A stretch of 64,000 nt of DNA from PVC group bacterium (lineage in GTDB: Bacteria > Omnitrophota > Gorgyraeia > B26-G9), in contig JAAEQR010000142.1 in NCBI GenBank assembly GCA_024231215.1, forward strand, positions 36,593-100,592, in the 5' to 3' direction. Below are positions 4,878-33,427 of this stretch, piece by piece. A program made the position numbers and the translations under genes. Below the pieces are notes generated by a model, which worked only from the letters and a program-made list of their open reading frames with translations, did no database searches and was not told the origin of the DNA. How positions within the stretch are numbered: position 1 is the first letter of the stretch; every line of letters begins with the position of its first letter.

Positions 4878-5366
4878 ATGAAAAATATAATAAAAATAGT
4901 ATTAGTTTGTACAGTTATCCCGGTTTTTCTCTGTGCTTATAGGACTACTGATAGAGAAGAAAATGTGACTCAAAAATCAGAAGTTCCTACTACCCCTATT
5001 GTTGAATACGAAACAATCCCCCAGAACCACCAATCTCCCGAAGAATTGTATCTACATTATCATCTTATTATCGTAACCTCACTTGAAGAAGCGTCTACTA
5101 CTTTGGATGATAACCAATTTTGGGCATATGGGATGGGAACAAATGCATATCACTATTTAGAGCTACTCTGTGAACTTTTTAGTCCAGAGTATCAAAACAA
5201 ACTTACTCAGATATCCGAAAGTATTGCTGCCGCAACAGCTTATTTAAAAAAAGACAATCTAACCCAGATCCAAAAAAACAGGGTTAAACAAAAACTTAAG
5301 GATACAGCAAAAGTTTTGGATCGTGAGTATTCTTATGCTAAAATTGAAAACTGGTTGCAAAAATGA
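4878..5366 (+). CDS. Hypothetical secreted protein with N-terminal signal peptide
   Basis: Hydrophobic N-terminus MKNIIKIVLVCTVIPVFLCA. No recognizable domain. Confidence 0.5.
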   Translation: MKNIIKIVLVCTVIPVFLCAYRTTDREENVTQKSEVPTTPIVEYETIPQNHQSPEELYLHYHLIIVTSLEEASTTLDDNQFWAYGMGTNAYHYLELLCELFSPEYQNKLTQISESIAAATAYLKKDNLTQIQKNRVKQKLKDTAKVLDREYSYAKIENWLQK

Positions 5367-5953
5367 TTCTAAAATCAATAGCTGTTGGAGATTTGCAGGC
5401 AAATTGTTATATATTAGGTGATGAGCAGAGTAAAGAAGGGATTTTAATTGATCCCGGGGATGAGCCGACAAGAATAGAATCAGAATTAAAAGCAACGGGA
5501 ATATCATTAAAAGCTATTATTTTAACCCATGGTCACTTTGATCATACAGGTGCAGTAAATGCTTTTGATATCCCGGTATATCTGCACAAAGACGATGAGC
5601 GATTCTTAAGAATTAGCCTCTTGGGAGAAGATGTTATCGGAAATATCGACCAGTTGCAATTCTTAAACGATGGACAAAAGCTAAATTTTGGAACACTTAC
5701 TTTACACATAATACATACGCCGGGACATTCTCCCGGGGGCATTTGCTTACAGGTAGAAAATATTTTGTTTAGTGGCGATACACTGTTTGCTCAGGGAGTA
5801 GGCAGAACTGATTTACCGGGTGGTTCTTATCAGCAGCTATGTAGTTCACTTAAACATAAGTTGTTTATATTGGATGAGCATACAATTGTCTATCCCGGAC
5901 ATGGGCCACAAACAACAATAGGTGAAGAAAAAACAGGGAATTTTTACCTATGA
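5363..5953 (+). CDS. MBL-fold metallo-hydrolase (glyoxalase II-like)
   Basis: LTHGHFDHTGAV is the HxHxDH motif. Downstream metal-ligand HTPGHSPGG and GDTLF are present. There is an ATGA overlap with the upstream gene. Confidence 0.85.
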   Translation: MILKSIAVGDLQANCYILGDEQSKEGILIDPGDEPTRIESELKATGISLKAIILTHGHFDHTGAVNAFDIPVYLHKDDERFLRISLLGEDVIGNIDQLQFLNDGQKLNFGTLTLHIIHTPGHSPGGICLQVENILFSGDTLFAQGVGRTDLPGGSYQQLCSSLKHKLFILDEHTIVYPGHGPQTTIGEEKTGNFYL

Positions 5954-6474
5954 ATTTAACACGTAGAGAGATATTATTGTCTTTTATCTATCTTATTGTT
6001 GTAATTGGAATTGCATTATATTTTTTCTTTTACAAGTTTTTGTTTATTCGTCATAATAAAGTAAATACCCAAATAACATCTGTAGAAAATGCCCTGACAA
6101 AGATGAATTCGATTATGGCCAGCAAATCCATAGTCGAGAAAGAGTATAGTGTTTTTGAGAAAAAGCTATCTTCAGAAAAAGTAAAACAAACAGCCTCTAC
6201 GGAAATCTTGCAGGATATAAAAACAAAGGCAGCACAAGCCGGATTAAATGTTATTAATATAAAACCCTTTTTGTTGAAAAAAGAGGGGTTATACGGAGCG
6301 TTTGATTTTAAGTTAGAAACCGAAGGTACTCTTAAAAATATAGGTCAATTTCTATATAATCTTGATGATTCTCCGTATTTATTTACAATAAAGTACTTAC
6401 AAATGAATGCCCGGACTCAGGGGGAGCATTTGCAGGTACAGCTAATGTTAAGTGCTATTTTGGCGAAAGAGTGA
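5950..6474 (+). CDS. Pilus/T2SS assembly protein, PilO/GspM-like
   Basis: N-terminal TM helix, then a coiled-coil segment, then a small C-terminal alpha/beta domain. Lies directly upstream of the PilP-like and secretin genes with ATGA start overlap. Confidence 0.45.
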   Translation: MNLTRREILLSFIYLIVVIGIALYFFFYKFLFIRHNKVNTQITSVENALTKMNSIMASKSIVEKEYSVFEKKLSSEKVKQTASTEILQDIKTKAAQAGLNVINIKPFLLKKEGLYGAFDFKLETEGTLKNIGQFLYNLDDSPYLFTIKYLQMNARTQGEHLQVQLMLSAILAKE

Positions 6475-6478
6475 TATA

Positions 6479-6979
6479 ATGGGGGAAAAGATTACCACGA
6501 TTCCATATAAGCATCTACAGTGGTTTAATATTTTCAATATACTGCTTGTAGTATTTGCAATATTATTTGCCGGAGGGCTTCTTTGGCTGCAGTTTTTTTC
6601 CGAACCAAATATAGTTTTTAATTTTCGGCATCAAAACAGCATGTCTGAATCCGTGACGGGAATGAAATTCCTGAAAAAGCCCATGGATTATTATGAACGC
6701 ATTTTATCCCGCAAAAGATTATTTGTAGCACAGCCCGGGGTAAAACGTATTAAAAAGACAGGCCTATCTATGAGCCTGGATGTACTACTAGATGAGTTGC
6801 AATTGCAGGGAATTGTATCTGGGCCCCAAGGACCACAAGCTATTATTTTTAATGCAAAAACAAATCGTTCGCATTATTGTCAAGGCGGAGAAACAATTGG
6901 TGGCTTTATAGTAAAGGAAGTGCTACCTGATAAAGTAGTATTAGATAGAGATAACGAAGAGGTTGAATTGAAATTATGA
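6479..6979 (+). CDS. Pilus assembly protein, PilP-like
   Basis: N-terminal TM segment. C-terminal beta-sandwich-like region GIVSGPQGPQAIIFNAKTNRSHYCQGGETIGGFIVKEVLPDKVVLDRDNEEVELKL is typical of PilP. Stop overlaps the secretin start. Confidence 0.45.
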   Translation: MGEKITTIPYKHLQWFNIFNILLVVFAILFAGGLLWLQFFSEPNIVFNFRHQNSMSESVTGMKFLKKPMDYYERILSRKRLFVAQPGVKRIKKTGLSMSLDVLLDELQLQGIVSGPQGPQAIIFNAKTNRSHYCQGGETIGGFIVKEVLPDKVVLDRDNEEVELKL

Positions 6980-8478
6980 AATTCAAGATCATATGTTTAG
7001 TGCTTATATTCATGACTCTTACTGTCTCAGGATTACAGGCAGAAGATGCTACATCTTTACACATCAACTTAGATGTTAAAAATATGAGCATTATCGATGT
7101 ATTAAGATTATTAGCGGAACAGGGACAGGTGAACATTGTTGCCAGTAAAAATGTTCAGGGTCGAATCACGGCTAAATTACAAGGTATAACCGTAGAAGAA
7201 GCTTTAGGGGCAATTTTAGATGCAAATAACTTTATTTACAAAAAAGAAAATAATATCATAAAAGTGTATGCCCGGCAGGATATTTTGCAGCAGGAACAAA
7301 CCGAGAAATTAGTAAGCAGGGTATTTTTGCTTGTTCATATCAAGGCCACTGATTTTAGGCAAGTATTAAATTCCATAAAATCTGCAAGAGGACGAGTAGA
7401 AATTAATACAGTTTCTAATCAAGTAATTGTAACTGATACCTTGGAAAAGATGGCAGAAATAGAACAAATAATAGCCGATTCTGATATGAAAATGGTTACA
7501 AAAATTTATAATTTAAATTATGCTGATGCAAATAGCCTAAAAGATAAGCTTATAGAAATGATTCCGAAACAAGCCGGGGATGTTTTTGTTGATGAACGTA
7601 CAAATGGTATTGTTATAAGAGCAGTTTCAGAAACGATTGAGAAAGTTGATTTACTGATGCAAAGCTGGGATAAGCGTTCTTCCCAGGTATTGATTGAAGC
7701 AAAAATATTAGAAGTATCTTTAGATAAAACAAAAGGACTGGGAGTTAGCTGGGAATATCAATCAAGTTCCAATAACGATGCTACCAGTCTTTCTGCTAGT
7801 TTGCCGGCAAGCATAAGCGGCGGGGGCATTTTTAAGGTAGGAACATTAACACAAGATGAATATACAGTAACCATACAAGCGCTGGAAAGTTCTACTAATA
7901 CAAATATCCTATCCAACCCCAGGATTGTAGTGGTTGACAATACCGAAGCAAATATTTTAGTTGGAAGTGCGGAACCATACTTAGTTACTTATATTGACAA
8001 AGAAACTAATACCCAAACAGAAGAAACTAAATTTATTGATGTCGGAGTAAAGTTAAATGTTACTCCTAAAATCAGCAAAGACGATTATATTACCTTAAAG
8101 ATTCATCCAGAAGTAAGTTCTGCCAGAAGAGTAGCTGAAGTCAATAACGCTCTGGCGGTAGATACAACCCAAGCTGATACAACTGTGGTTGTGAAAAACG
8201 GACAAACCATTGTAATGGGGGGATTAATAAAAGACACCTCGTCAAAAGTCCAAGCCAAAGTTCCAGTTTTAGGTAGTATCCCGATTATCGGTTTGTTTTT
8301 CAGGAGTCACGCTACTGCAAAAATCAAGAAGGAAATAGTAGTTTTTATTACTCCTCATATTTTAGAAAACAGCGAAACTAGGATAACAGTTGGTGATAGA
8401 GAGCAGGCAATGAAACAAGCTATCCAGGAGGCTGCTAATAAATGGGATGAATGGGAAGGAGAAAAAGATTATGAATAA
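6976..8478 (+). CDS. pilQ: Secretin family outer-membrane channel (type IV pilus PilQ / T2SS GspD-like)
   Basis: Signal peptide plus an N0-like domain. C-terminal secretin core NPRIVVVDNTEANILVGSAEPYLVTY...VKNGQTIVMGGLI...VPVLGSIPIIGLFFRS. Confidence 0.85.
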   Translation: MKFKIICLVLIFMTLTVSGLQAEDATSLHINLDVKNMSIIDVLRLLAEQGQVNIVASKNVQGRITAKLQGITVEEALGAILDANNFIYKKENNIIKVYARQDILQQEQTEKLVSRVFLLVHIKATDFRQVLNSIKSARGRVEINTVSNQVIVTDTLEKMAEIEQIIADSDMKMVTKIYNLNYADANSLKDKLIEMIPKQAGDVFVDERTNGIVIRAVSETIEKVDLLMQSWDKRSSQVLIEAKILEVSLDKTKGLGVSWEYQSSSNNDATSLSASLPASISGGGIFKVGTLTQDEYTVTIQALESSTNTNILSNPRIVVVDNTEANILVGSAEPYLVTYIDKETNTQTEETKFIDVGVKLNVTPKISKDDYITLKIHPEVSSARRVAEVNNALAVDTTQADTTVVVKNGQTIVMGGLIKDTSSKVQAKVPVLGSIPIIGLFFRSHATAKIKKEIVVFITPHILENSETRITVGDREQAMKQAIQEAANKWDEWEGEKDYE

Positions 8479-21905: not shown

Positions 21906-21983
21906 CGGGGCGTGGCGCAGTTTGGCTAGCGCGCTTGAATGGGGTTCAAGAGGTCGGTGGTTCAAGTCCACTCGCCCCGACCA
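21906..21983 (+). tRNA. tRNA-Pro (anticodon GGG), CCA encoded
   Basis: Cloverleaf: acceptor stem CGGGGCG pairs with CGCCCCG. D-stem GCGC/GCGC. Anticodon stem CTTGA/TCAAG with loop ATGGGGT, giving anticodon GGG and G37. T-arm GGTGG-TTCAAGT-CCACT. Discriminator A followed by CCA. Confidence 0.85.
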
Positions 21984-26048: not shown

Positions 26049-26146
26049 ATTCTTTTAAATCTGTCATAACTTCACGCAAATACACAACTAATTGGAAACA
26101 AATGCCTTACAAGTCAGTAGCACGTAATGTTTTTCCATACCTCGAC

Positions 26147-26175
26147 TTGACACACTAAAAAGGATATGATATACT
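26147..26175 (+). promoter_or_regulatory. Sigma70-type promoter (TTGACA-17 nt-TATACT) driving the riboswitch leader
   Basis: -35 TTGACA at 26147-26152, a 17-nt spacer, and -10 TATACT at 26170-26175. Confidence 0.5.
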
Positions 26176-26235
26176 TATTATAGGATTTAAAAAACATTTT
26201 AATTTGTTGCGGATAAATTAGTATTATTTGTATCC

Positions 26236-26325
26236 GAAAAGGCAAACCCTGAGAAATCAGGGGGCGCAAAGCTACGGGTCTGTTAGCAGATGCTATGATC
26301 GCCGGGCGCACCGATAACGTTCTAG
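26236..26325 (+). promoter_or_regulatory. Candidate cyclic-di-GMP-I (GEMM) riboswitch aptamer
   Basis: GGCAAACC, then hairpin CCCUGA-GAAA-UCAGGG with a GNRA loop, then GGGGCGCAAAGCUACGGGUCU. This closely parallels the conserved P2 region of the V. cholerae Vc2 aptamer (GGCAAACC..GAAA..GGGACGCAAAGCCUCCGGCCU). It is GC-rich relative to the flanks. Confidence 0.55.
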
Positions 26326-26337
26326 CAAGCTTATGAT

Positions 26338-26377
26338 AGCCGAGCTGCCGAAGTATACGCAGTTGCGGCTTTTTTTA
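26338..26377 (+). terminator. Intrinsic terminator, likely the riboswitch expression platform
   Basis: AGCCGAGCTGC-CGAAGTATAC-GCAGTTGCGGCT forms an 11-bp stem with one bulge, followed by T7. Confidence 0.5.
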
Positions 26378-26420: not shown

Positions 26421-26546
26421 ATGAAAAAAATTCAAAAAAGGGATACACACATTATATTATTTATATTTTCTATATTATTATCTGAAACATCTATATTTTC
26501 TTTAACATATTATCTATTTATATATCAAATCAGGAGGCTAATATGA
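26421..26546 (+). CDS. Candidate 41-aa hydrophobic leader/uORF peptide, translationally coupled to the giant gene
   Basis: The ATG at 26421 gives MKKIQKRDTHIILFIFSILLSETSIFSLTYYLFIYQIRRLI. Its stop TGA overlaps the ATG of the downstream gene (ATGA at 26543-26546). The SD-like GGGAGGTGA is far from the start, about 11-14 nt. Not in the ORF track because it is under 60 aa. Confidence 0.25.
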   Translation: MKKIQKRDTHIILFIFSILLSETSIFSLTYYLFIYQIRRLI

Positions 26547-29500
26547 AAATCTTACGTTATTATACCCTTGCAGTTGTTTTTTGTTTCTTAGCAAATGTGA
26601 TCCTGTCAGTACCCGGTGCTAATGCCCAAACCCATGATGAGCTTTTAGATAGCGGGCTTAGCCAGGAAGTGTTACAAGGCTTATTCAATTCTAATGAGCC
26701 GATCAGTAATCAAAGTGACGCTGCCAATCTTTCCCAGAGTGAAATTGCACCGCCCCCTTTAGTTATCACTACATCCGGTGGTGACATTTATCTACTTCAA
26801 GGTGATGGTGTTAAAGCCAAGATGAAGATAGATCAGCAAGGCACTTTAGAAACAACCTATTCTCTTGACGGTGCTGACTACAAAATGATCAATGAGTTTG
26901 GTGAAGAATTTCATTATGAATACTCCCCGGACGGACAAACAGTACAAATTCTAAATGCCAATAACGAAGTTGTTGGAGAACACTCATTTGAATTGGGCAA
27001 AGCAACCGCATTTTCCGCCCAGGGCAAAATAACTTACCAATATTCTGATGATGGACTTAATCGCTTAGTGACCTCCACAGATGAATGGGGCAATGTTACT
27101 CATTATGACGACTTAAGCCGTCCCACAACAATTACAGACACAGATGGCAACGTTGTCGGAGAATACAAGTTTGATTCTAAGGGTCGGATGCAATCTTTTA
27201 CCGATCGTACCGGAAATGTCACAGTTTTTAATTCCGACGGAATCCGTCCTTTATATACTAAAAATGCACAAGGCACAAAAACTCAGGAATACCGTTATGA
27301 TAGCGACGGACATCTTGACGCGGTAATGAATATTACCAATGGACAAATAACCGAAGTAGAAAATGGATATTACACAGTAACTTATGATACAGTTGAAGTG
27401 CTCAATGATGACGGCACTGTAATGACTGATGAAAACGGTGAAGCAGTACTTGAATATGTTGCAGTCGGCGTATATTCTTATGATACGGCTGGAAATGTAG
27501 AATCTGTTAGCGATCTTGGAATGGGAGGAGTAATTACAGGCTTTACAGAGTATGATGATTACGGAAGAGTTTGTGCTTCCTATAATGCTGAAGGCACTAA
27601 GGTTCAAGAATACAAATATAATGAACATGGTTTCTTGGAAATGACTATATCACTGGGAGCAGTTGATCCATTGGCTGGAGAGCAAACTGTTTTAACTTAT
27701 ACAATATTTGACGGTAATGGTCGTCCAAGTGAAGTATGGCAGCTTGGTGATGGGGAAAACGACAAGATAAAAATCCAAGAATACGTGTATAAAGAAAATG
27801 GTCTTCTGGATATAACCGTTTCTTATGGTATAGAACGGGATGATCAAGGAAATGCAGTACTTAATGATGCCGGAAACTACATTTATTTTGAAACATCAAA
27901 AACTGTTTATGATAAAAAAGGCCGTCCTGAAGCTGTATATGGGATGGTTCGCAATGAAGCTAGCGAATTAGTTGTAGATAGCGATGGAAAACCGGTGCTG
28001 GAGATACAGCAAAAGTACGTCTATAATAAGGAAGGTTTTTTATCTAAAACGATATCTTACGGATTTAACGGTGCAAAAACAGGAGAAACAGTATTTGACG
28101 CATACAGCCGTCCGGTAGAATCTTATAATAGCACCGGGGCTTTAACCCAAACCTATACTTATCGTGAAGACGGTTTCTTAGCTCAAACTTCCAATTATGG
28201 AGACGCGGGAACATTAACCGGATATACACTATATGATGCAAAGGGCAAACCTACCGATGTATTTAATCATGAAGGCAGTCTTGTCCAAAAATATATATAT
28301 GATGAAAATGGTTCAATGATAATGAGCTTAAGCTTATCTTCCGAAGAAGGTGTGAATGACTTAATAGCTGCTACAATTCAGGATAAAACTGCCATTGCTG
28401 ATCTATGGAATAGCGATTGGGATTCAACTTATGACTTTCTTGATCCTGACAATAAGCTTACTTCAGAATATTTAACTTCTGTTGCATGGACAGCTTTAGC
28501 TGACGGTGATATTGAAAAAGCAAAAGCATTTACATTAAAATGCATCCAGACTTTTTCAGGAGAAGCTTTGTCTCAGCAAAAAAGTTTAGATGAACTACCA
28601 ACCGGGCCTGGAATTTCCCAAAATTGGGCCGTAAATGATGTTGGTACTTGTTATAATATTCTAGGTTTGGCTTTAGAGGAAGAAGGCGCTGTTGATGCCG
28701 CAGTAAGCGCATATAAAATACAAGCTTCTGATTTTGGCTATGCACAGGCCTATGACCCGGCAGAAGGCAGCTATTGGCTGGTAAGCGACGGGTCTAAAAA
28801 ACAGTTAGGAGAACTAAACGTAGAAACATCTGTTGTAACTGGATACACTATGTTTGGTGGAGACTCAAAACCAGTTGCTTCATATCAGTTTTATGAAAAA
28901 TTCGATGAGAATGGAGTAAGCCTTGGTGTGCAGGCAACAAAAGTGCAGGAATATGTATACTCCTATGAAGGTAAAACAAAAAATAAGGAAACCGGAGAAT
29001 ATTCAATGGTAACAAAATACTCTGGTTTTGTGCAAAAAACCAGCAACTATGGAGATTTCGATGCTGATACCGGAGAGCAGGTCGTAACCGGTTATACTGT
29101 GTTTGATAAGCTTGGACGTCAACAAAAAACATATAACGACGAAGATCAAGCTGTTCAATCCTACCAATATTCAAATGAAGGTTTTTTAAAAAGCACTGTT
29201 AGTTATGGCCAAAATGGCGTAAGAACAGGAACTACTATTTTTGATAGCTATTCACGTCCAGTTGCCAGCTTCAATATGATGGGTACAAGTACTGGCAAGA
29301 TGCCTAAATCATTTATCCAGGCTCTTAGTAATGGATTAACTAACGAAGAATTAAGTTCTCAAGAATGGCAGCCTTACTTAAAAGGCCTCAGTCAAACCTT
29401 TGAATACGGTAGTGATGGATTCTTAAGCAGCAGCAAATCTTATGGAGAAGCCATAGAAATCAAGGTTACTGATTTTGACGGATTTGCTTCATCTATGGGA

Positions 29501-32500
29501 TCCAGGAAAGGCGATGCTGAATATAAAGCTAAGTATGATTTCAACGAAGATGGAAGTATCAATACAGCAGATATGACTATCTTTAACGACGCCTTTTCCG
29601 GCATAATGGAATTCTCCGAGACTTATGGCTCTACATCAGACGGTCCTGGTCTTTACTTAGCGAAATATGATTATGACAGCGATGGAGATGTAGACAAAAC
29701 GGATCTAAGAGTATTCGCTAAGACATTTGAAAATACAGCAAAATACAGCCCTACCTGGACTGGAGTAACTCACTATGATAAATATGGGAAGGCTGACAAA
29801 GTAATCAATGTTATTACAGACGAGGATGGAAATCCGACTGAAGGTATTATGGTACAACAATATGAATATAATACCCGCGGTTTCATGGAAAAATCTGTTT
29901 CCTATGGAGTTGTAACAGACGATAATGGCACTATAATTATGGATGGAGATACTCCAATTGCCTTGGCCACTGGATACACATTGTTTGATGCTAAATCTCG
30001 GCCGGTATCTACATATAGTATTTATTCTTCTGCTACAACACAACCTCAAGAATCCAAAGTCCAGGATTATGTATATGAAGAAGGTTTTTTAGTTAAAACC
30101 GTCAACTATGGAGATATTGATGCAGAAACAGGTAATGCGGTAGAAACCGGATATACTGAATTTGATAGATATGGGCGTCAAACAGTATCGTATAATGAAT
30201 CCGATCAAAAAGTATCAACATTTAAATATTCTTCCCAGGGCTTTTTGAACGAAACATATAACTACGGAAAAAACGGAGCATTCCAGGGAAAAACAACATT
30301 TAATAAGAGTGGTCGCCCTGTAGAAGCCTACAACATGTATGCAAGTAGAAACGGCAAAGAAACCGGGTTGACTCAAAAATTTAACTACAATGAATATGGC
30401 CTTATGAGTCATAGTGAAACTTTTGGAGAAAACCAGACTCTAACCGGAACAACGTATTATAATGGTTATGGAAAAGGTTTACGGGTAGAAAACGAAAAAG
30501 GCTTTGTTATTTCCTCTTATCATTATAACGAACGCGGTTTTATGGAAAAAACACAAAGTCTTGCTTTTGTAGAAGTAACTGACCCGGAAGAGATCGCACA
30601 GCTTCAAGACAGCGGACTGTATGTAGAAATCACAACAACAGACGATAGTACTAATGAAACAGTAACAGCCGGCGGATTTTACGCAGTAACCGGTCATACA
30701 GAATTCGACGCATATTCACGTCCCACAGACTCCTACCAATGCTACTGGGATACTCAAGGGGAAGGTGAAAGAGTTAAAGTTCAGGAATACAAGTACGAAG
30801 ATGGCTTCTTAGTAGAAACTATAACTTTAGGCAGACCGGATGAAACAGGAGCTCAACAGCAAACAGGCCGTACTGAATTTGACAAGTATGGACGTCAGGT
30901 AGCATCATATAATGAATTTGATGAGCTTACAACAAAATACAAATACTCTACTCAAGGGTTTCTCTCAGGAACCAGCAACCATGGAGCACGTGGAGTTATT
31001 ACCGGTAAAACTGAAATCGGAGCTTTAGGAAAACCAACTGGAGCTTATAATCAAAAAGGAACCTTAGTTCAGTCTTTCAACTATGATAGTGTTACCGGTC
31101 AATTAACCGGAAGCACATCTTATGGAGAACCTGATGCCGAAACCGGAAATCCTACATTAACCGGTACTACTACATATGATGCCTATGGTAAAGCAACTGC
31201 AGCATATAATGATAAAGGAGCTCAAGTACAAAAATATGTATACGATAACCAGGGATTTATGTTAGAAACCGTTAGCCTGGGCGATGACATAGGACAAGGC
31301 CCGGTAGAAACAGGCCGAACAGTGTATGATCATGCCAGCCGGCCAATGGAATCTTATACTATCTCAGCTAGCGGAGTAGAAACTAAAGTTCAGGTATTTG
31401 TATACAATAGTGCAGTTAATTTATCTAATTATGAACAATATATTGCAAATCCAACTGATGCTCAGTTTGCAGAGACGGAAACCGGGTTCTTGACGACTAC
31501 ATTCAGTCATGGCAAAAATAACCACTTGGCTGGGTATACGAAGTTCAATAACTATGGACAACAAGAAGCATCATATAATGAGTTTGATGAGATGACTGTT
31601 GCATTCAAATATTCCAAGTCAGGCTTCATGACTGAATCCTGGAATTACACTATCAACAAAACTCGTACAGGTGTAACCTCATATAGTGCAACAGGAAGGC
31701 CAGACGCTTCATATAATGAAAAAGGCGCTGTAATCCAGGAATTCAATTACAATGACAATGGGTTTTTGGTATCTACAAACGGTTATGGAGATCTGGATGA
31801 AAACGGTGATCCTACATTAACACAAACCACACATTATGATGAATTTGGAAAACAAACACATAGCATGAATATAGATGGTGCTATTTCCCAAACTTTCCAT
31901 TATGATGATGCTGGTTTTCTTGAAAGATCAACCGGCTGGGCACAACGTGAAGATACTCCGGATACTCTTATCTGGTATGAAGTCTTAGATCAAGGATATG
32001 CCGTGGAAACTAGTTATACACTGTACAATGATGCATCCAGACCTTCTGAATCATACAGTGTATATGAAGGTGCCTCTGGAAAAACAGAAATGAAAACACA
32101 AGAGTTTATTTACAACACAGGCGTTGATGAAACCAATTATCAGGCATACATGGAAAATCCAGAAGCATTCAGCGAGACTGTAACCGGATTCATGACACAG
32201 TCTGTAACTTTCGCTCTAAATAACAGCAGTGTAGATGCGGAAGGAAATCTTGTATTTACCGATTCTTACTCACACGTAGATGAAGAAAGCGGTATTACTA
32301 CTGCCAATGAATTAGGCTCTGAAGTAATTGTCTCTGGGTTGACTTCGTACAATCGATATGGTCGTCCGGATACAACTTACAATCATGAGGGGCAAAAAGT
32401 TTCCGTAAGTAAGTACAATCAAAACGGTTTCCTGCAACAAACTGAAAATTACGGAGATAACGGTGCTATTACCGGTAAATTGCTATACAACGCAGCTGGC

Positions 32501-33427
32501 AGACCAACCGAAGCATTAAACCACAAAAACGTCAAAGTAACAGAATACTTCTATAACGATCAAGGTGGGTTAGACGTTACTTTAAACTACAACAATGGAA
32601 CTATAACCCAAAGAACAGAATATGACATATATTCTAAGGCAACAGCTTCTTACCAGCTTTTCTCAGGAAAAGAAGGTAACAAATTTGGAGAACAGCAGGG
32701 ATATCAATATGATGCCTCAGGAACCGCTAACTATGATGTAAATAATCCTACTGCACGTGGCAGCGGAACATTAACCCAGCAAAGTTACTATAATGAATTC
32801 GGGTTAATGAAGGCTTCTGTTACTTACGGAAGAAGTGGAAAAGAGACCAGTTATGTTGTATTCGATAAATATCAAAGACCAGTTGAAGTATATAACATAT
32901 CTCCTGATAATCAAAACGGTCGCGATACAATTTTGTCCAGCATCATTGTGCAAAGCGAAAACGTTTATACGGGAGAAGCTGCTGCTAACCTGGGATCAGC
33001 TAGAGTTCAAAGCTACAACTATAATGCAAATGGCTTTATGACCTCAACGATCTCTTATCAGAGATCAAAGGACTACGATGATCAGGGTAATCCGGTGGCT
33101 GACGGAACTTGGGAAAAAGAAACCTCAATCACTTACTATGCAAGTAACGGGCAACAAATAAACACATTCTTGCTAAAAGATGGGGTACAGGCTAATCTCG
33201 CAAAACCTGATCACACAGTCGGTGCAAAACAAGCTGAATACAAGTACAACACTAATGGGTTCTTAGACAGAGCCTATAATTATCAGGATAATTCTCAGAC
33301 AGGATACACCAAATATGATGATAGCGGAAGACAAACAACAAGCTACAATGATAAAGGCACTGCTGTCAATGCTTACTGGTATAATTCAAATGGGTTCTTG
33401 ATTGGTAGTACCTCGCTGGGACAGTAG
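26543..33427 (+). CDS. Giant secreted repeat protein (2,294 aa). Built from about 40 degenerate YD/RHS-like repeats with a central dockerin-like Ca-binding pair. Putative surface or extracellular protein.
   Basis: Signal peptide MKILRYYTLAVVFCFLANVILSVPGANAQ. Recurring unit of about 45 aa: TGYTxFDxYGRQxxSYNExDQxVxxYKYSxxGFLxxTxNYGxNG. Dockerin-like segments KYDFNEDGSINTADMTIFNDAF and KYDYDSDGDVDKTDLRVFAKTF. Cys-free and rich in G, Y, T and N. SD CAGGAGG precedes the ATG. Confidence 0.85.
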   Translation: MKILRYYTLAVVFCFLANVILSVPGANAQTHDELLDSGLSQEVLQGLFNSNEPISNQSDAANLSQSEIAPPPLVITTSGGDIYLLQGDGVKAKMKIDQQGTLETTYSLDGADYKMINEFGEEFHYEYSPDGQTVQILNANNEVVGEHSFELGKATAFSAQGKITYQYSDDGLNRLVTSTDEWGNVTHYDDLSRPTTITDTDGNVVGEYKFDSKGRMQSFTDRTGNVTVFNSDGIRPLYTKNAQGTKTQEYRYDSDGHLDAVMNITNGQITEVENGYYTVTYDTVEVLNDDGTVMTDENGEAVLEYVAVGVYSYDTAGNVESVSDLGMGGVITGFTEYDDYGRVCASYNAEGTKVQEYKYNEHGFLEMTISLGAVDPLAGEQTVLTYTIFDGNGRPSEVWQLGDGENDKIKIQEYVYKENGLLDITVSYGIERDDQGNAVLNDAGNYIYFETSKTVYDKKGRPEAVYGMVRNEASELVVDSDGKPVLEIQQKYVYNKEGFLSKTISYGFNGAKTGETVFDAYSRPVESYNSTGALTQTYTYREDGFLAQTSNYGDAGTLTGYTLYDAKGKPTDVFNHEGSLVQKYIYDENGSMIMSLSLSSEEGVNDLIAATIQDKTAIADLWNSDWDSTYDFLDPDNKLTSEYLTSVAWTALADGDIEKAKAFTLKCIQTFSGEALSQQKSLDELPTGPGISQNWAVNDVGTCYNILGLALEEEGAVDAAVSAYKIQASDFGYAQAYDPAEGSYWLVSDGSKKQLGELNVETSVVTGYTMFGGDSKPVASYQFYEKFDENGVSLGVQATKVQEYVYSYEGKTKNKETGEYSMVTKYSGFVQKTSNYGDFDADTGEQVVTGYTVFDKLGRQQKTYNDEDQAVQSYQYSNEGFLKSTVSYGQNGVRTGTTIFDSYSRPVASFNMMGTSTGKMPKSFIQALSNGLTNEELSSQEWQPYLKGLSQTFEYGSDGFLSSSKSYGEAIEIKVTDFDGFASSMGSRKGDAEYKAKYDFNEDGSINTADMTIFNDAFSGIMEFSETYGSTSDGPGLYLAKYDYDSDGDVDKTDLRVFAKTFENTAKYSPTWTGVTHYDKYGKADKVINVITDEDGNPTEGIMVQQYEYNTRGFMEKSVSYGVVTDDNGTIIMDGDTPIALATGYTLFDAKSRPVSTYSIYSSATTQPQESKVQDYVYEEGFLVKTVNYGDIDAETGNAVETGYTEFDRYGRQTVSYNESDQKVSTFKYSSQGFLNETYNYGKNGAFQGKTTFNKSGRPVEAYNMYASRNGKETGLTQKFNYNEYGLMSHSETFGENQTLTGTTYYNGYGKGLRVENEKGFVISSYHYNERGFMEKTQSLAFVEVTDPEEIAQLQDSGLYVEITTTDDSTNETVTAGGFYAVTGHTEFDAYSRPTDSYQCYWDTQGEGERVKVQEYKYEDGFLVETITLGRPDETGAQQQTGRTEFDKYGRQVASYNEFDELTTKYKYSTQGFLSGTSNHGARGVITGKTEIGALGKPTGAYNQKGTLVQSFNYDSVTGQLTGSTSYGEPDAETGNPTLTGTTTYDAYGKATAAYNDKGAQVQKYVYDNQGFMLETVSLGDDIGQGPVETGRTVYDHASRPMESYTISASGVETKVQVFVYNSAVNLSNYEQYIANPTDAQFAETETGFLTTTFSHGKNNHLAGYTKFNNYGQQEASYNEFDEMTVAFKYSKSGFMTESWNYTINKTRTGVTSYSATGRPDASYNEKGAVIQEFNYNDNGFLVSTNGYGDLDENGDPTLTQTTHYDEFGKQTHSMNIDGAISQTFHYDDAGFLERSTGWAQREDTPDTLIWYEVLDQGYAVETSYTLYNDASRPSESYSVYEGASGKTEMKTQEFIYNTGVDETNYQAYMENPEAFSETVTGFMTQSVTFALNNSSVDAEGNLVFTDSYSHVDEESGITTANELGSEVIVSGLTSYNRYGRPDTTYNHEGQKVSVSKYNQNGFLQQTENYGDNGAITGKLLYNAAGRPTEALNHKNVKVTEYFYNDQGGLDVTLNYNNGTITQRTEYDIYSKATASYQLFSGKEGNKFGEQQGYQYDASGTANYDVNNPTARGSGTLTQQSYYNEFGLMKASVTYGRSGKETSYVVFDKYQRPVEVYNISPDNQNGRDTILSSIIVQSENVYTGEAAANLGSARVQSYNYNANGFMTSTISYQRSKDYDDQGNPVADGTWEKETSITYYASNGQQINTFLLKDGVQANLAKPDHTVGAKQAEYKYNTNGFLDRAYNYQDNSQTGYTKYDDSGRQTTSYNDKGTAVNAYWYNSNGFLIGSTSLGQ

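Follow-up and report, generated by a model that had tools for sequence, protein, structure and literature searches.

We describe a riboswitch of the cyclic di-GMP-I class (c-di-GMP-I, or GEMM-I) in 64,000 nucleotides (nt) of contig JAAEQR010000142.1 from a PVC group bacterium of the Omnitrophota, a stretch that we call the window and by whose positions all features are given. The riboswitch is a genuine and unexceptional member of its class, but its expression platform represents a recurrent and apparently undescribed variant, in which the P3 hairpin of the aptamer holds a second, nested copy of the aptamer's own 3' half. The element lies in positions 26182-26377, which, to judge from the sequence, would form the 5' leader of the mRNA for a putative secreted repeat protein of 2294 amino acids (aa). 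We propose, at a probability of about one half, that the RNA acts as an ON switch in which the nested copy would be a functional internal competitor.

The whole window was scanned against Rfam 15 with cmscan. The sole riboswitch match, at 26232-26353 of the plus strand, was to RF03167 (c-di-GMP-I-GGC) and covered positions 1-80 of the 80 in the model, at 67.9 bits and E 6e-14 with a gathering score of 59; a further family, likewise of clan CL00126, passed its own gathering score too and was masked by clan competition. We infer that the masked family was RF01051, because six of the eight closest relatives of the element (L121, L131, L146, L177, L208 and L235), which are described below, matched RF01051 at 62-80 bits, its gathering score being 35. 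An earlier note, made from the letters of the window alone, had proposed a c-di-GMP-I (GEMM) riboswitch with a terminator platform, and this proposal is supported by the covariance score, which lay above the threshold, by the formation of P3, and by the mutual exclusivity of aptamer and terminator. The strings that it had quoted, GGCAAACC (26241-26248), CCCUGA-GAAA-UCAGGG (26247-26262), and GGCGCAAAGCUACGGGUCU (26263-26281), all lie at the places given, and the segment is GC-rich in AT-rich surroundings as it had stated, with 54% G+C in the element, 28% and 22.5% in the flanks, and 37% in the whole window. The minus-strand open reading frame (ORF) of 65 aa at 26114..26311 that it had listed is present and gave no Pfam match. 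The note had not located P3, for which there are two alternative pairings, and it had missed the end of the aptamer at 26353, the overlap with the terminator, and the second 3'-half copy in the P3 "loop."

When the element was aligned with the homologous leaders of the eight close relatives, as the earlier note had recommended, P2 showed compensatory changes in five of its six stem pairs, and P3, whose formation and conservation the note had singled out as a test, formed with the bulges expected of it, together with a receptor-type strand, UAUGAU, and was invariant and 100% paired in all eight. The GAAA loop of P2 (26253-26256) is present, and the 3' receptor strand UAUGAU occurs in both copies of the 3' half. 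The model alignment placed the canonical triplet of ligand contacts at G26241, A26268, and C26348, which we take to be G20, A47, and C92 of the Vc2 aptamer. We sampled 127 aptamers, one genome per species, with a pattern permitting A or G at the position of A26268, and found A in 127 of 127; of 112 aptamers sampled independently, 110 had C in exactly the register of C26348 behind the P3 core.

The variant RF03167 was reportedly defined by Weinberg and coworkers in 2017; its "GGC" presumably denotes a G in place of A after CGC, at position 47, and we take an A at the G20 position to be the signature of the cGAMP aptamers (GEMM-Ib). It is highly improbable, in our view, that the window RNA is a specificity variant of either kind with a ligand other than c-di-GMP. 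RF03167 is indeed the best-scoring family, but A26268 stands where its consensus CGCGAAgC has the distinguishing G, and the GGC variant was rejected on that ground; the cGAMP aptamer was rejected on the presence of G, not A, at 26241. The operons of relatives, moreover, encode PilZ and MshEN receptors for c-di-GMP. RF03167 was also the best family for the canonical A-type aptamers L007, L123, L143, L226, and L113, and near relatives were best matched by RF01051. Because canonical aptamers are thus caught by the variant model, the name of the top family is an outcome of clan competition and no call on specificity, and the high RF03167 score reflects a P3 sequence typical of the lineage, not a variant signature. 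As the variant-defining G is absent and the G/A/C triplet is canonical, we filed the RNA as an ordinary c-di-GMP-I (GEMM-I) aptamer, with c-di-GMP its presumed ligand on the strength of this signature. There is an annotation pitfall here: canonical aptamers of the lineage are labelled "GGC variant" since RF03167 outscores RF01051, the variant base being absent.

The Rfam alignment takes positions 26281-26334, 54 nt in all, for an insertion in the loop of P3, and this insertion contains the second 3'-half copy. We call the proximal copy b and the distal, canonical one copy a, and S1 the strand of the 5' half that can pair with either, giving P3b or P3a. The repeat D2, comprising 26283-26318 (UUAGCAGAUGCUAUGAUCGCCGGGCGCACCGAUAAC, with copy b) and 26322-26358 (CUAGCAAGCUUAUGAUAGCCGAGCUGCCGAAGUAUAC, with copy a), has 28 identical columns of 36-37, which was equalled in 1 of 2000 shuffles. 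When the window was cut at 26322, which removed copy a, Rfam still returned a full-length match over model positions 1-80, which lay at 26232-26316 and had 54.0 bits and E 1.7e-12. As the truncated window still gave a complete aptamer match, one 5' half can close with either 3' half. A tandem riboswitch was considered and rejected, there being a single 5' half, a single P2, and a single Rfam locus, with a repeat only of 26283-26318 in 26322-26358.

The two copies are not equivalent. The fold with copy a outscored that with copy b, 67.9 versus 54.0 bits, despite the 54-nt insertion, and the tail of copy a, UGCCG, is the commonest form among the 112 independently sampled aptamers. The junction of copy b is 1 nt too long and has an A at the C92-equivalent place, where 110 of the 112 carry C, and there is an A-G mismatch at its P3 closing pair. 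In another possible hairpin, Hb, copy b folds back on its tail and the spacer that follows, which excludes pairing of copy b with S1. The apical pair of Hb, 26305-26311, is changed from G-C to A-U in relatives L146 and L226, and base 26311 is the one that would serve as C92 were copy b the sensor. Because this base changes together with its Hb partner in these two relatives, the comparison suggests that the C-like base of copy b is constrained by pairing within Hb and not by the ligand.

Only the distal copy a is shared with the terminator. The terminator arms, GCCGAGCUGC (26339-26348) and GCAGUUGCGGC (26359-26369), form a stem of 10 bp, seven of them G-C pairs, with G26365 bulged, a 10-nt loop, and a ΔG of -13.0. 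The 5' arm consists of the aptamer P3 3' strand (26340-26346) plus junction bases G26347 and C26348, and aptamer and terminator are therefore mutually exclusive. The transcription-attenuation platform that the earlier note had proposed is thus real; the hairpin and the T7 (26370-26376) that it had described were found, and its length of 11 bp and its spacing of 15 nt were not, the stem having 10 bp and a bulge. A simple terminator scan, which admitted loops of 3-8 nt only, missed this terminator because its loop is 10 nt. The stem is conserved in the eight close relatives.

To find other such elements, metagenomes were searched with a pattern in which a single P3 5' strand precedes two cores of the 3' half, separated by 15-45 nt, a spacing that leaves no room for a second 5' half. 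The dual-3'-half layout was present in at least 120 metagenome stretches, with 108 distinct full-length examples among the matches listed. A genome sample picked by the 5' half alone had it in L120 and in two loci with an Omnitrophota label, L007 and L014. The subtype of the window element, recognized by the tail of the proximal copy (copy 1), GCGCACCGAUAAC, is shared by the eight close relatives, L121, L131, L146, L149, L177, L208, L226, and L235. In these, the core of copy b is invariant, both versions of P3 are pairable in eight of eight without variation, and Rfam uses the distal copy (copy 2) in every one, with matches of about 120-150 nt. The wider set was more informative with respect to pairing, as 22 sequences among the matches listed have an altered three-base segment of the P3 5' strand. 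Full pairing was kept with copy 1 in 17 of these and with copy 2 also in 17; when the partners were taken from other sequences as a control, pairing was 14% for copy 1 and 21% for copy 2. Because pairing is kept so much more often than in these controls, the comparison of sequences indicates that both S1 pairings are under selection, which in turn argues that copy b is not a relic.

In this wider family, among the matches listed, the terminator 5' arm starts at base 1 or 2 of copy 2 in 61 of the 84 dual-copy relatives with a detectable hairpin and U-run. In single-copy aptamers from Omnitrophota, the terminator 5' arm lies on the aptamer P3 3' strand and junction, as in the window (L065), or on the junction and P1 3' strand (L113), and both placements are the standard ON layout. 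Together with L007 and L014, these two are the aptamers that most resemble the one in the window, and it is from their labels that we call the lineage Omnitrophota-like.

Some dual-copy relatives have a P2 insertion of 52-68 nt (L229 at 684-802, L225 at 1853-1986, L127, L150, L161, L209, L213, and L233) that resembles the P2 3' strand plus junction, for example GGCGGACGC versus GGGGACGC; with RF01051 these relatives score 37-49 bits only. Partial self-duplication of aptamer strands may thus be a recurring device in the lineage.

Folding was examined with a nearest-neighbour model. The minimum free energy (MFE) structure of the whole leader has a z-score of -0.68, which is not significant, and pairs the A-run with the U-tract; since we treated it as an artefact, we used constrained folds and stepwise folds of a growing transcript. 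With the transcript ending at 26318, the MFE structure had S1 paired with copy b (P3b), and at 26338 Hb was formed. For ends from 26348 to 26365, S1 was paired with copy a and Hb capped this helix (-45.9), and at 26369 the terminator took over (-50.9), ahead by about 5 kcal/mol. The local energies were -22.6 for P3a with Hb and, for the competing state, -11.2 for P3b and -13.0 for the terminator (sum -24.2). With these values the two states are balanced to within a few kcal/mol, as one would expect of a switch. All constrained states fell within about 10 kcal/mol of each other, and these energies do not decide between ON and OFF.

In the ON switch that we favour, the ligand-binding fold would be made by the 5' half (the P1 5' strand, P2 with its GAAA loop, and S1) closed by copy a (26329-26358). 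Binding of c-di-GMP at G26241, A26268, and C26348 would lock P3 and the junction; once locked, 26339-26348 would be unable to pair with 26359-26369, no terminator would form, and transcription would read through. The proximal, slightly degenerate copy b (26292-26318) would be a built-in competitor that pairs with S1 first during transcription, is then withdrawn by its own tail and the spacer in Hb, and offers an alternative partner for S1 once S1 is displaced from copy a by the terminator. Termination and read-through would then correspond to folds of nearly equal energy, with ligand binding deciding between them, and copy b would keep a very stable aptamer from making the switch leaky. We favour this direction because copy a scores higher in spite of the penalty for the insertion, because Rfam takes the distal copy in all eight close relatives, because copy a has the commonest junction and copy b an overlong one with a mismatch, because the C-like base in copy b changes with the base that it faces in Hb, because L113 and L065 show the standard ON placement of the terminator, and because regulated genes of the present kind are usually induced by c-di-GMP. 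As a rule, c-di-GMP induces, and less often represses, giant surface proteins and c-di-GMP receptors. We advance more tentatively the broader possibility that the nested duplicate is a selected module that constitutes a distinct GEMM-I expression-platform architecture, so far undescribed and common in Omnitrophota-like uncultured bacteria. If this were true, one 5' half would choose between two 3' halves, giving a three-state switch (competitor-bound, apo, and holo) that could set the threshold for c-di-GMP, and ligand might be captured before the terminator-linked strand is transcribed.

The direction could also be the reverse, which we think rather unlikely. The sensor of such an OFF switch would be the compact fold of the 5' half with proximal copy b: without ligand, the spacer would capture copy b in Hb and the pairing of S1 with copy a would act as an antiterminator, giving read-through; with c-di-GMP, the compact aptamer would be locked, and free copy a would pair with 26359-26369 and stop transcription. 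Several observations that weigh against an ON switch fall into place here. Copy b with the 5' half is a complete aptamer by Rfam, at 54 bits and E 1.7e-12, and its fold, the MFE structure at transcript end 26318, is made first; being transcribed first, copy b would meet the ligand first, and ligand-bound copy b would favour termination. Rfam picks the proximal copy in L007, L143, L014, and L123, and most members of the wider family have a proximal copy that looks fully canonical, with a UGCCG or UACCG tail in 88 of the 108 dual-copy members among the matches listed. An antiterminator based on S1 would, in addition, predict a terminator 5' arm that mimics the aptamer 3' strand, and the energetic balance of the two states suits either direction. 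An antiterminator strand, however, needs none of the bulges, junction GC, or CGAA of a true 3' half; in each of the eight close relatives the best score is obtained with the distal copy; and c-di-GMP more commonly induces than represses giant surface proteins and its own receptors. The features of copy b itself, namely a junction 1 nt longer than in 110 of 112 sampled aptamers, the A-G mismatch at the P3 closing pair, and a C92-like base that varies along with its Hb partner, speak against it as sensor. Two further comparisons did not separate the directions: a search of the fetched loci for unbiased dual-copy examples yielded only four that were usable (L007, L014, L081, and another site in L214), not enough to settle the direction, and the integrity of the tetraloop-receptor contact in the two states, read by eye from the alignment of relatives, was mixed and non-discriminating.

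Alternatively, the RNA might be a plain ON riboswitch in which copy b is the leftover of an old duplication, now an apical extension of P3 (Hb) with no part in switching. The P3 of GEMM-I aptamers does tolerate long insertions (L011, L108, and L016), Rfam handles copy b as a mere insertion, and in the energy model the pairing of copy b with S1 is transient, copy b staying in Hb in the final terminated MFE structure. A relic would not be expected, however, to keep its core invariant and its full S1 pairing potential in eight relatives while the downstream proteins drifted apart to about 50% identity, nor, among the matches listed for the wider family, would the proximal copy be expected to covary with S1 (17 of 22, versus 14% in controls); the layout, moreover, recurs in at least 120 metagenome stretches. 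We consider a relic quite improbable.

Other points count against the ON switch with copy b as competitor. Its direction, and with it the role of copy b, is argued from the sequence throughout. The covariation in Hb comes from two related sequences and may be one event. The metagenome pattern required a canonical copy 2, so that the uniformity of copy 2 among those matches is no evidence. On its receptor side, S1 reads CUGUUAG in the window versus CUAAAG or CUAAGG in all eight relatives. In P1, the only firm pairs are G26236-C26349 and C26235-G26350; beyond them, the A/U-rich extension (26230-26233 with 26355-26358) is unspecific, own and swapped partners alike giving -2.0 to -2.3 kcal/mol, and covariation of P1 with either copy gave no signal in the relatives. 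Finally, no gene with a GGDEF, EAL, or HD-GYP domain was found among the 28 window proteins scanned.

Table. Positions of the riboswitch, its parts, and the adjoining features in the window.
Feature	Positions	Strand	Remarks
Sigma-70-type promoter candidate	26147..26175	+	-35 TTGACA 26147-26152, 17-nt spacer, TG-extended -10 TATACT 26170-26175
Hairpin H0	26210..26236	+	CGGAUA 26210-26215 pairs with UAUCCG 26231-26236; ΔG -5.3
Full c-di-GMP-I aptamer	26232..26353	+	Rfam alignment; 5' half and distal 3' half (copy a)
Ligand-contact G	26241	+	model alignment; contacts one ligand guanine
P2 hairpin	26242..26267	+	outer GC/GC pairs, AAA bulge, CCCUGA/UCAGGG stem, GAAA tetraloop 26253-26256
Ligand-contact A	26268	+	model CGCGAAgC versus window CGCAAAGC; GGC-variant model has G
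S1	26270..26287	+	P3 5' strand AGCU-A-CGGGUC and receptor-side strand CUGUUAGC; partner is copy b or copy a
Hairpin Hb	26291..26327	+	copy b on its own tail and spacer; ΔG -9.4; in MFE structure once 26338 is transcribed
Copy b, proximal 3' half	26292..26318	+	GCUAUGAUCGCCGGGCGCACCGAUAAC; gives a compact aptamer-like fold with the 5' half
Copy a, distal canonical 3' half	26329..26358	+	GCUUAUGAUAGCCGAGCUGCCGAAGUAUAC; P3 3' strand, junction GC, P1 3' strand
Intrinsic terminator	26339..26376	+	26339-26348 pairs with 26359-26369, then U7 26370-26376
Ligand-contact C	26348	+	pairs with second ligand guanine; also last base of terminator 5' arm
Small hydrophobic ORF	26421..26546	+	41 aa from ATG; stop overlaps start of the large gene (ATGA)
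Regulated gene	26543..33427	+	2294 aa; YD/RHS-like repeats, dockerin/EF-hand-like segment

The promoter candidate matches 11 of 12 consensus positions and has the TG extension in addition; it was the top site of the region and would place the start of transcription near 26182. The hairpin H0 was kept in the MFE structure of every growing transcript in these ligand-free folds and, in the model, would sequester the P1 5' strand. A direct repeat, D3, is found upstream, AUUUGUUGCGGAUAA (26202-26216) versus AUUUGUAUCCGAAAA (26226-26240), and GUUGCGG at 26206-26212 is identical to part of the terminator 3' arm (26362-26368). In L121, L131, L177, L208, and L235, two extra hairpins interrupt the P1-P2 junction, with AUCCG twice followed by CGGAU, a 5'-side competitor arrangement analogous to H0 of the window.

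The protein of 2294 aa has a signal-peptide-like N-terminus, as read by eye, and gave only sub-threshold matches in Pfam (Dockerin_1, 21.9 bits; RHS_repeat, E 0.016). An ortholog with 50% identity over 1116 aa lies behind a dual-copy riboswitch in L131 (metagenome contig SDBU01000001.1), so that riboswitch, duplicate, and gene are conserved together. When its first 500 aa were compared with GTDB species genomes, none of 122 pattern matches was confirmed, and its first 600 aa found no match at E <= 1e-5 in a word-indexed set of 5.8 billion proteins. The small ORF between leader and gene is preceded by GGGAGG, a purine-rich, Shine-Dalgarno-like sequence recognized by eye; it had no Pfam match, and its similarity to an in-frame N-terminal extension of similar character in L131 was not significant (E 0.07).

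Farther upstream in the window are hom, a gene for a threonine-synthase-like PLP enzyme (thrC), and apgM, with a tRNA gene (21906-21980; Rfam RF00005, 58.2 bits) just ahead of this cluster; downstream are kdsA, kpsF, kdsC, and lptB, because of which we take the host to be a diderm bacterium. An exact look-up of the ApgM protein found no record. A run of small ORFs at 4878-8478 ends in a secretin (6976-8478, with Secretin, Secretin_N, and STN domains) and probably represents a cluster for a type IV pilus or for type II secretion.

Behind the dual-copy riboswitches of relatives we found a PilZ protein (L235 5645-6028, the second gene after the riboswitch), a protein with MshEN and PilZ domains (L149 6073-6918), and a PAS-GAF-HD_5 protein (L165 1520-3127), which from its domains is likely of the HD-GYP type; c-di-GMP riboswitches would thus control receptors of c-di-GMP and a probable phosphodiesterase. 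Other dual-copy riboswitches precede large surface-type proteins, and many precede proteins of about 110 aa that looked PilX- or pilin-like by eye; Pfam did not confirm this. Directly behind the riboswitch in six relatives (L121 1793-2293, L146, L177 1273-1767, L208, L226, and L235 5111-5596) there is a conserved protein of about 165 aa with the N-terminal segment IIQALLLTQVDFALA, which has no Pfam match and no equivalent in the window.

As a c-di-GMP-I riboswitch the element is a routine annotation, and it ties an orphan surface-type protein of 2294 aa from an uncultured diderm to control by c-di-GMP. The design is a recurrent one: in at least 120 environmental stretches, a riboswitch bears its own 3' half twice, in copies that compete with each other. 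If copy b is functional, it would be a natural internal competitor strand that holds the ON and OFF folds in balance for an aptamer with very tight binding.

The window RNA shares with Vc2 and RF01051 the three-helix junction, the GAAA tetraloop of P2, the junction motifs GGCAAACC and CGCAAAGC, the characteristic bulges of P3, the G/A/C triplet, the position in a 5' leader, and the association with surface or pilus and c-di-GMP signalling genes. Unlike them, it holds a nested second 3'-half copy in P3, its P1 consists of two G-C pairs and an A/U-rich extension whose 5' strand is also complementary to upstream sequence (H0), and its receptor-side strand, CUGUUAG, is atypical. With the RF03167 variant it shares the overall fold, whereas the variant G after CGC is an A in the window. 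The add adenine riboswitch of Vibrio vulnificus is a three-state switch with a binding-incompetent apo fold, and as there, an alternative pairing of an aptamer strand would give a ligand-incompetent state that tunes the response; class and ligand differ, the competitor in the window nearly duplicates the 3' half of the aptamer itself, and what is controlled is transcription termination. A duplicated half-aptamer competing for one 5' half was not described in a survey of tandem riboswitches, a review of expression platforms, and full-text searches, whose coverage was incomplete, and the novelty of the dual-3'-half architecture is probable. In Bc2 of Bacillus thuringiensis, upstream of the cap gene for collagen adhesion, a terminator represses and c-di-GMP relieves the repression (PMC4933901). 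Like Bc2, the window has an aptamer followed by an intrinsic terminator before a large adhesin-type gene; unlike Bc2, for which no duplication of the 3' half was described, its terminator 5' arm is the P3 3' strand of a distal copy. Tandem c-di-GMP-I riboswitches, of which 347 doublets and 12 triplets have been reported (PMC9481103), among tandems also Bc3-5 (PMC4759541), likewise repeat aptamer sequence in one leader. The tandems, however, comprise whole aptamers, each usually with its own platform, whereas the window repeats only the 3' half of about 37 nt and has a single 5' half, for which the two copies compete.

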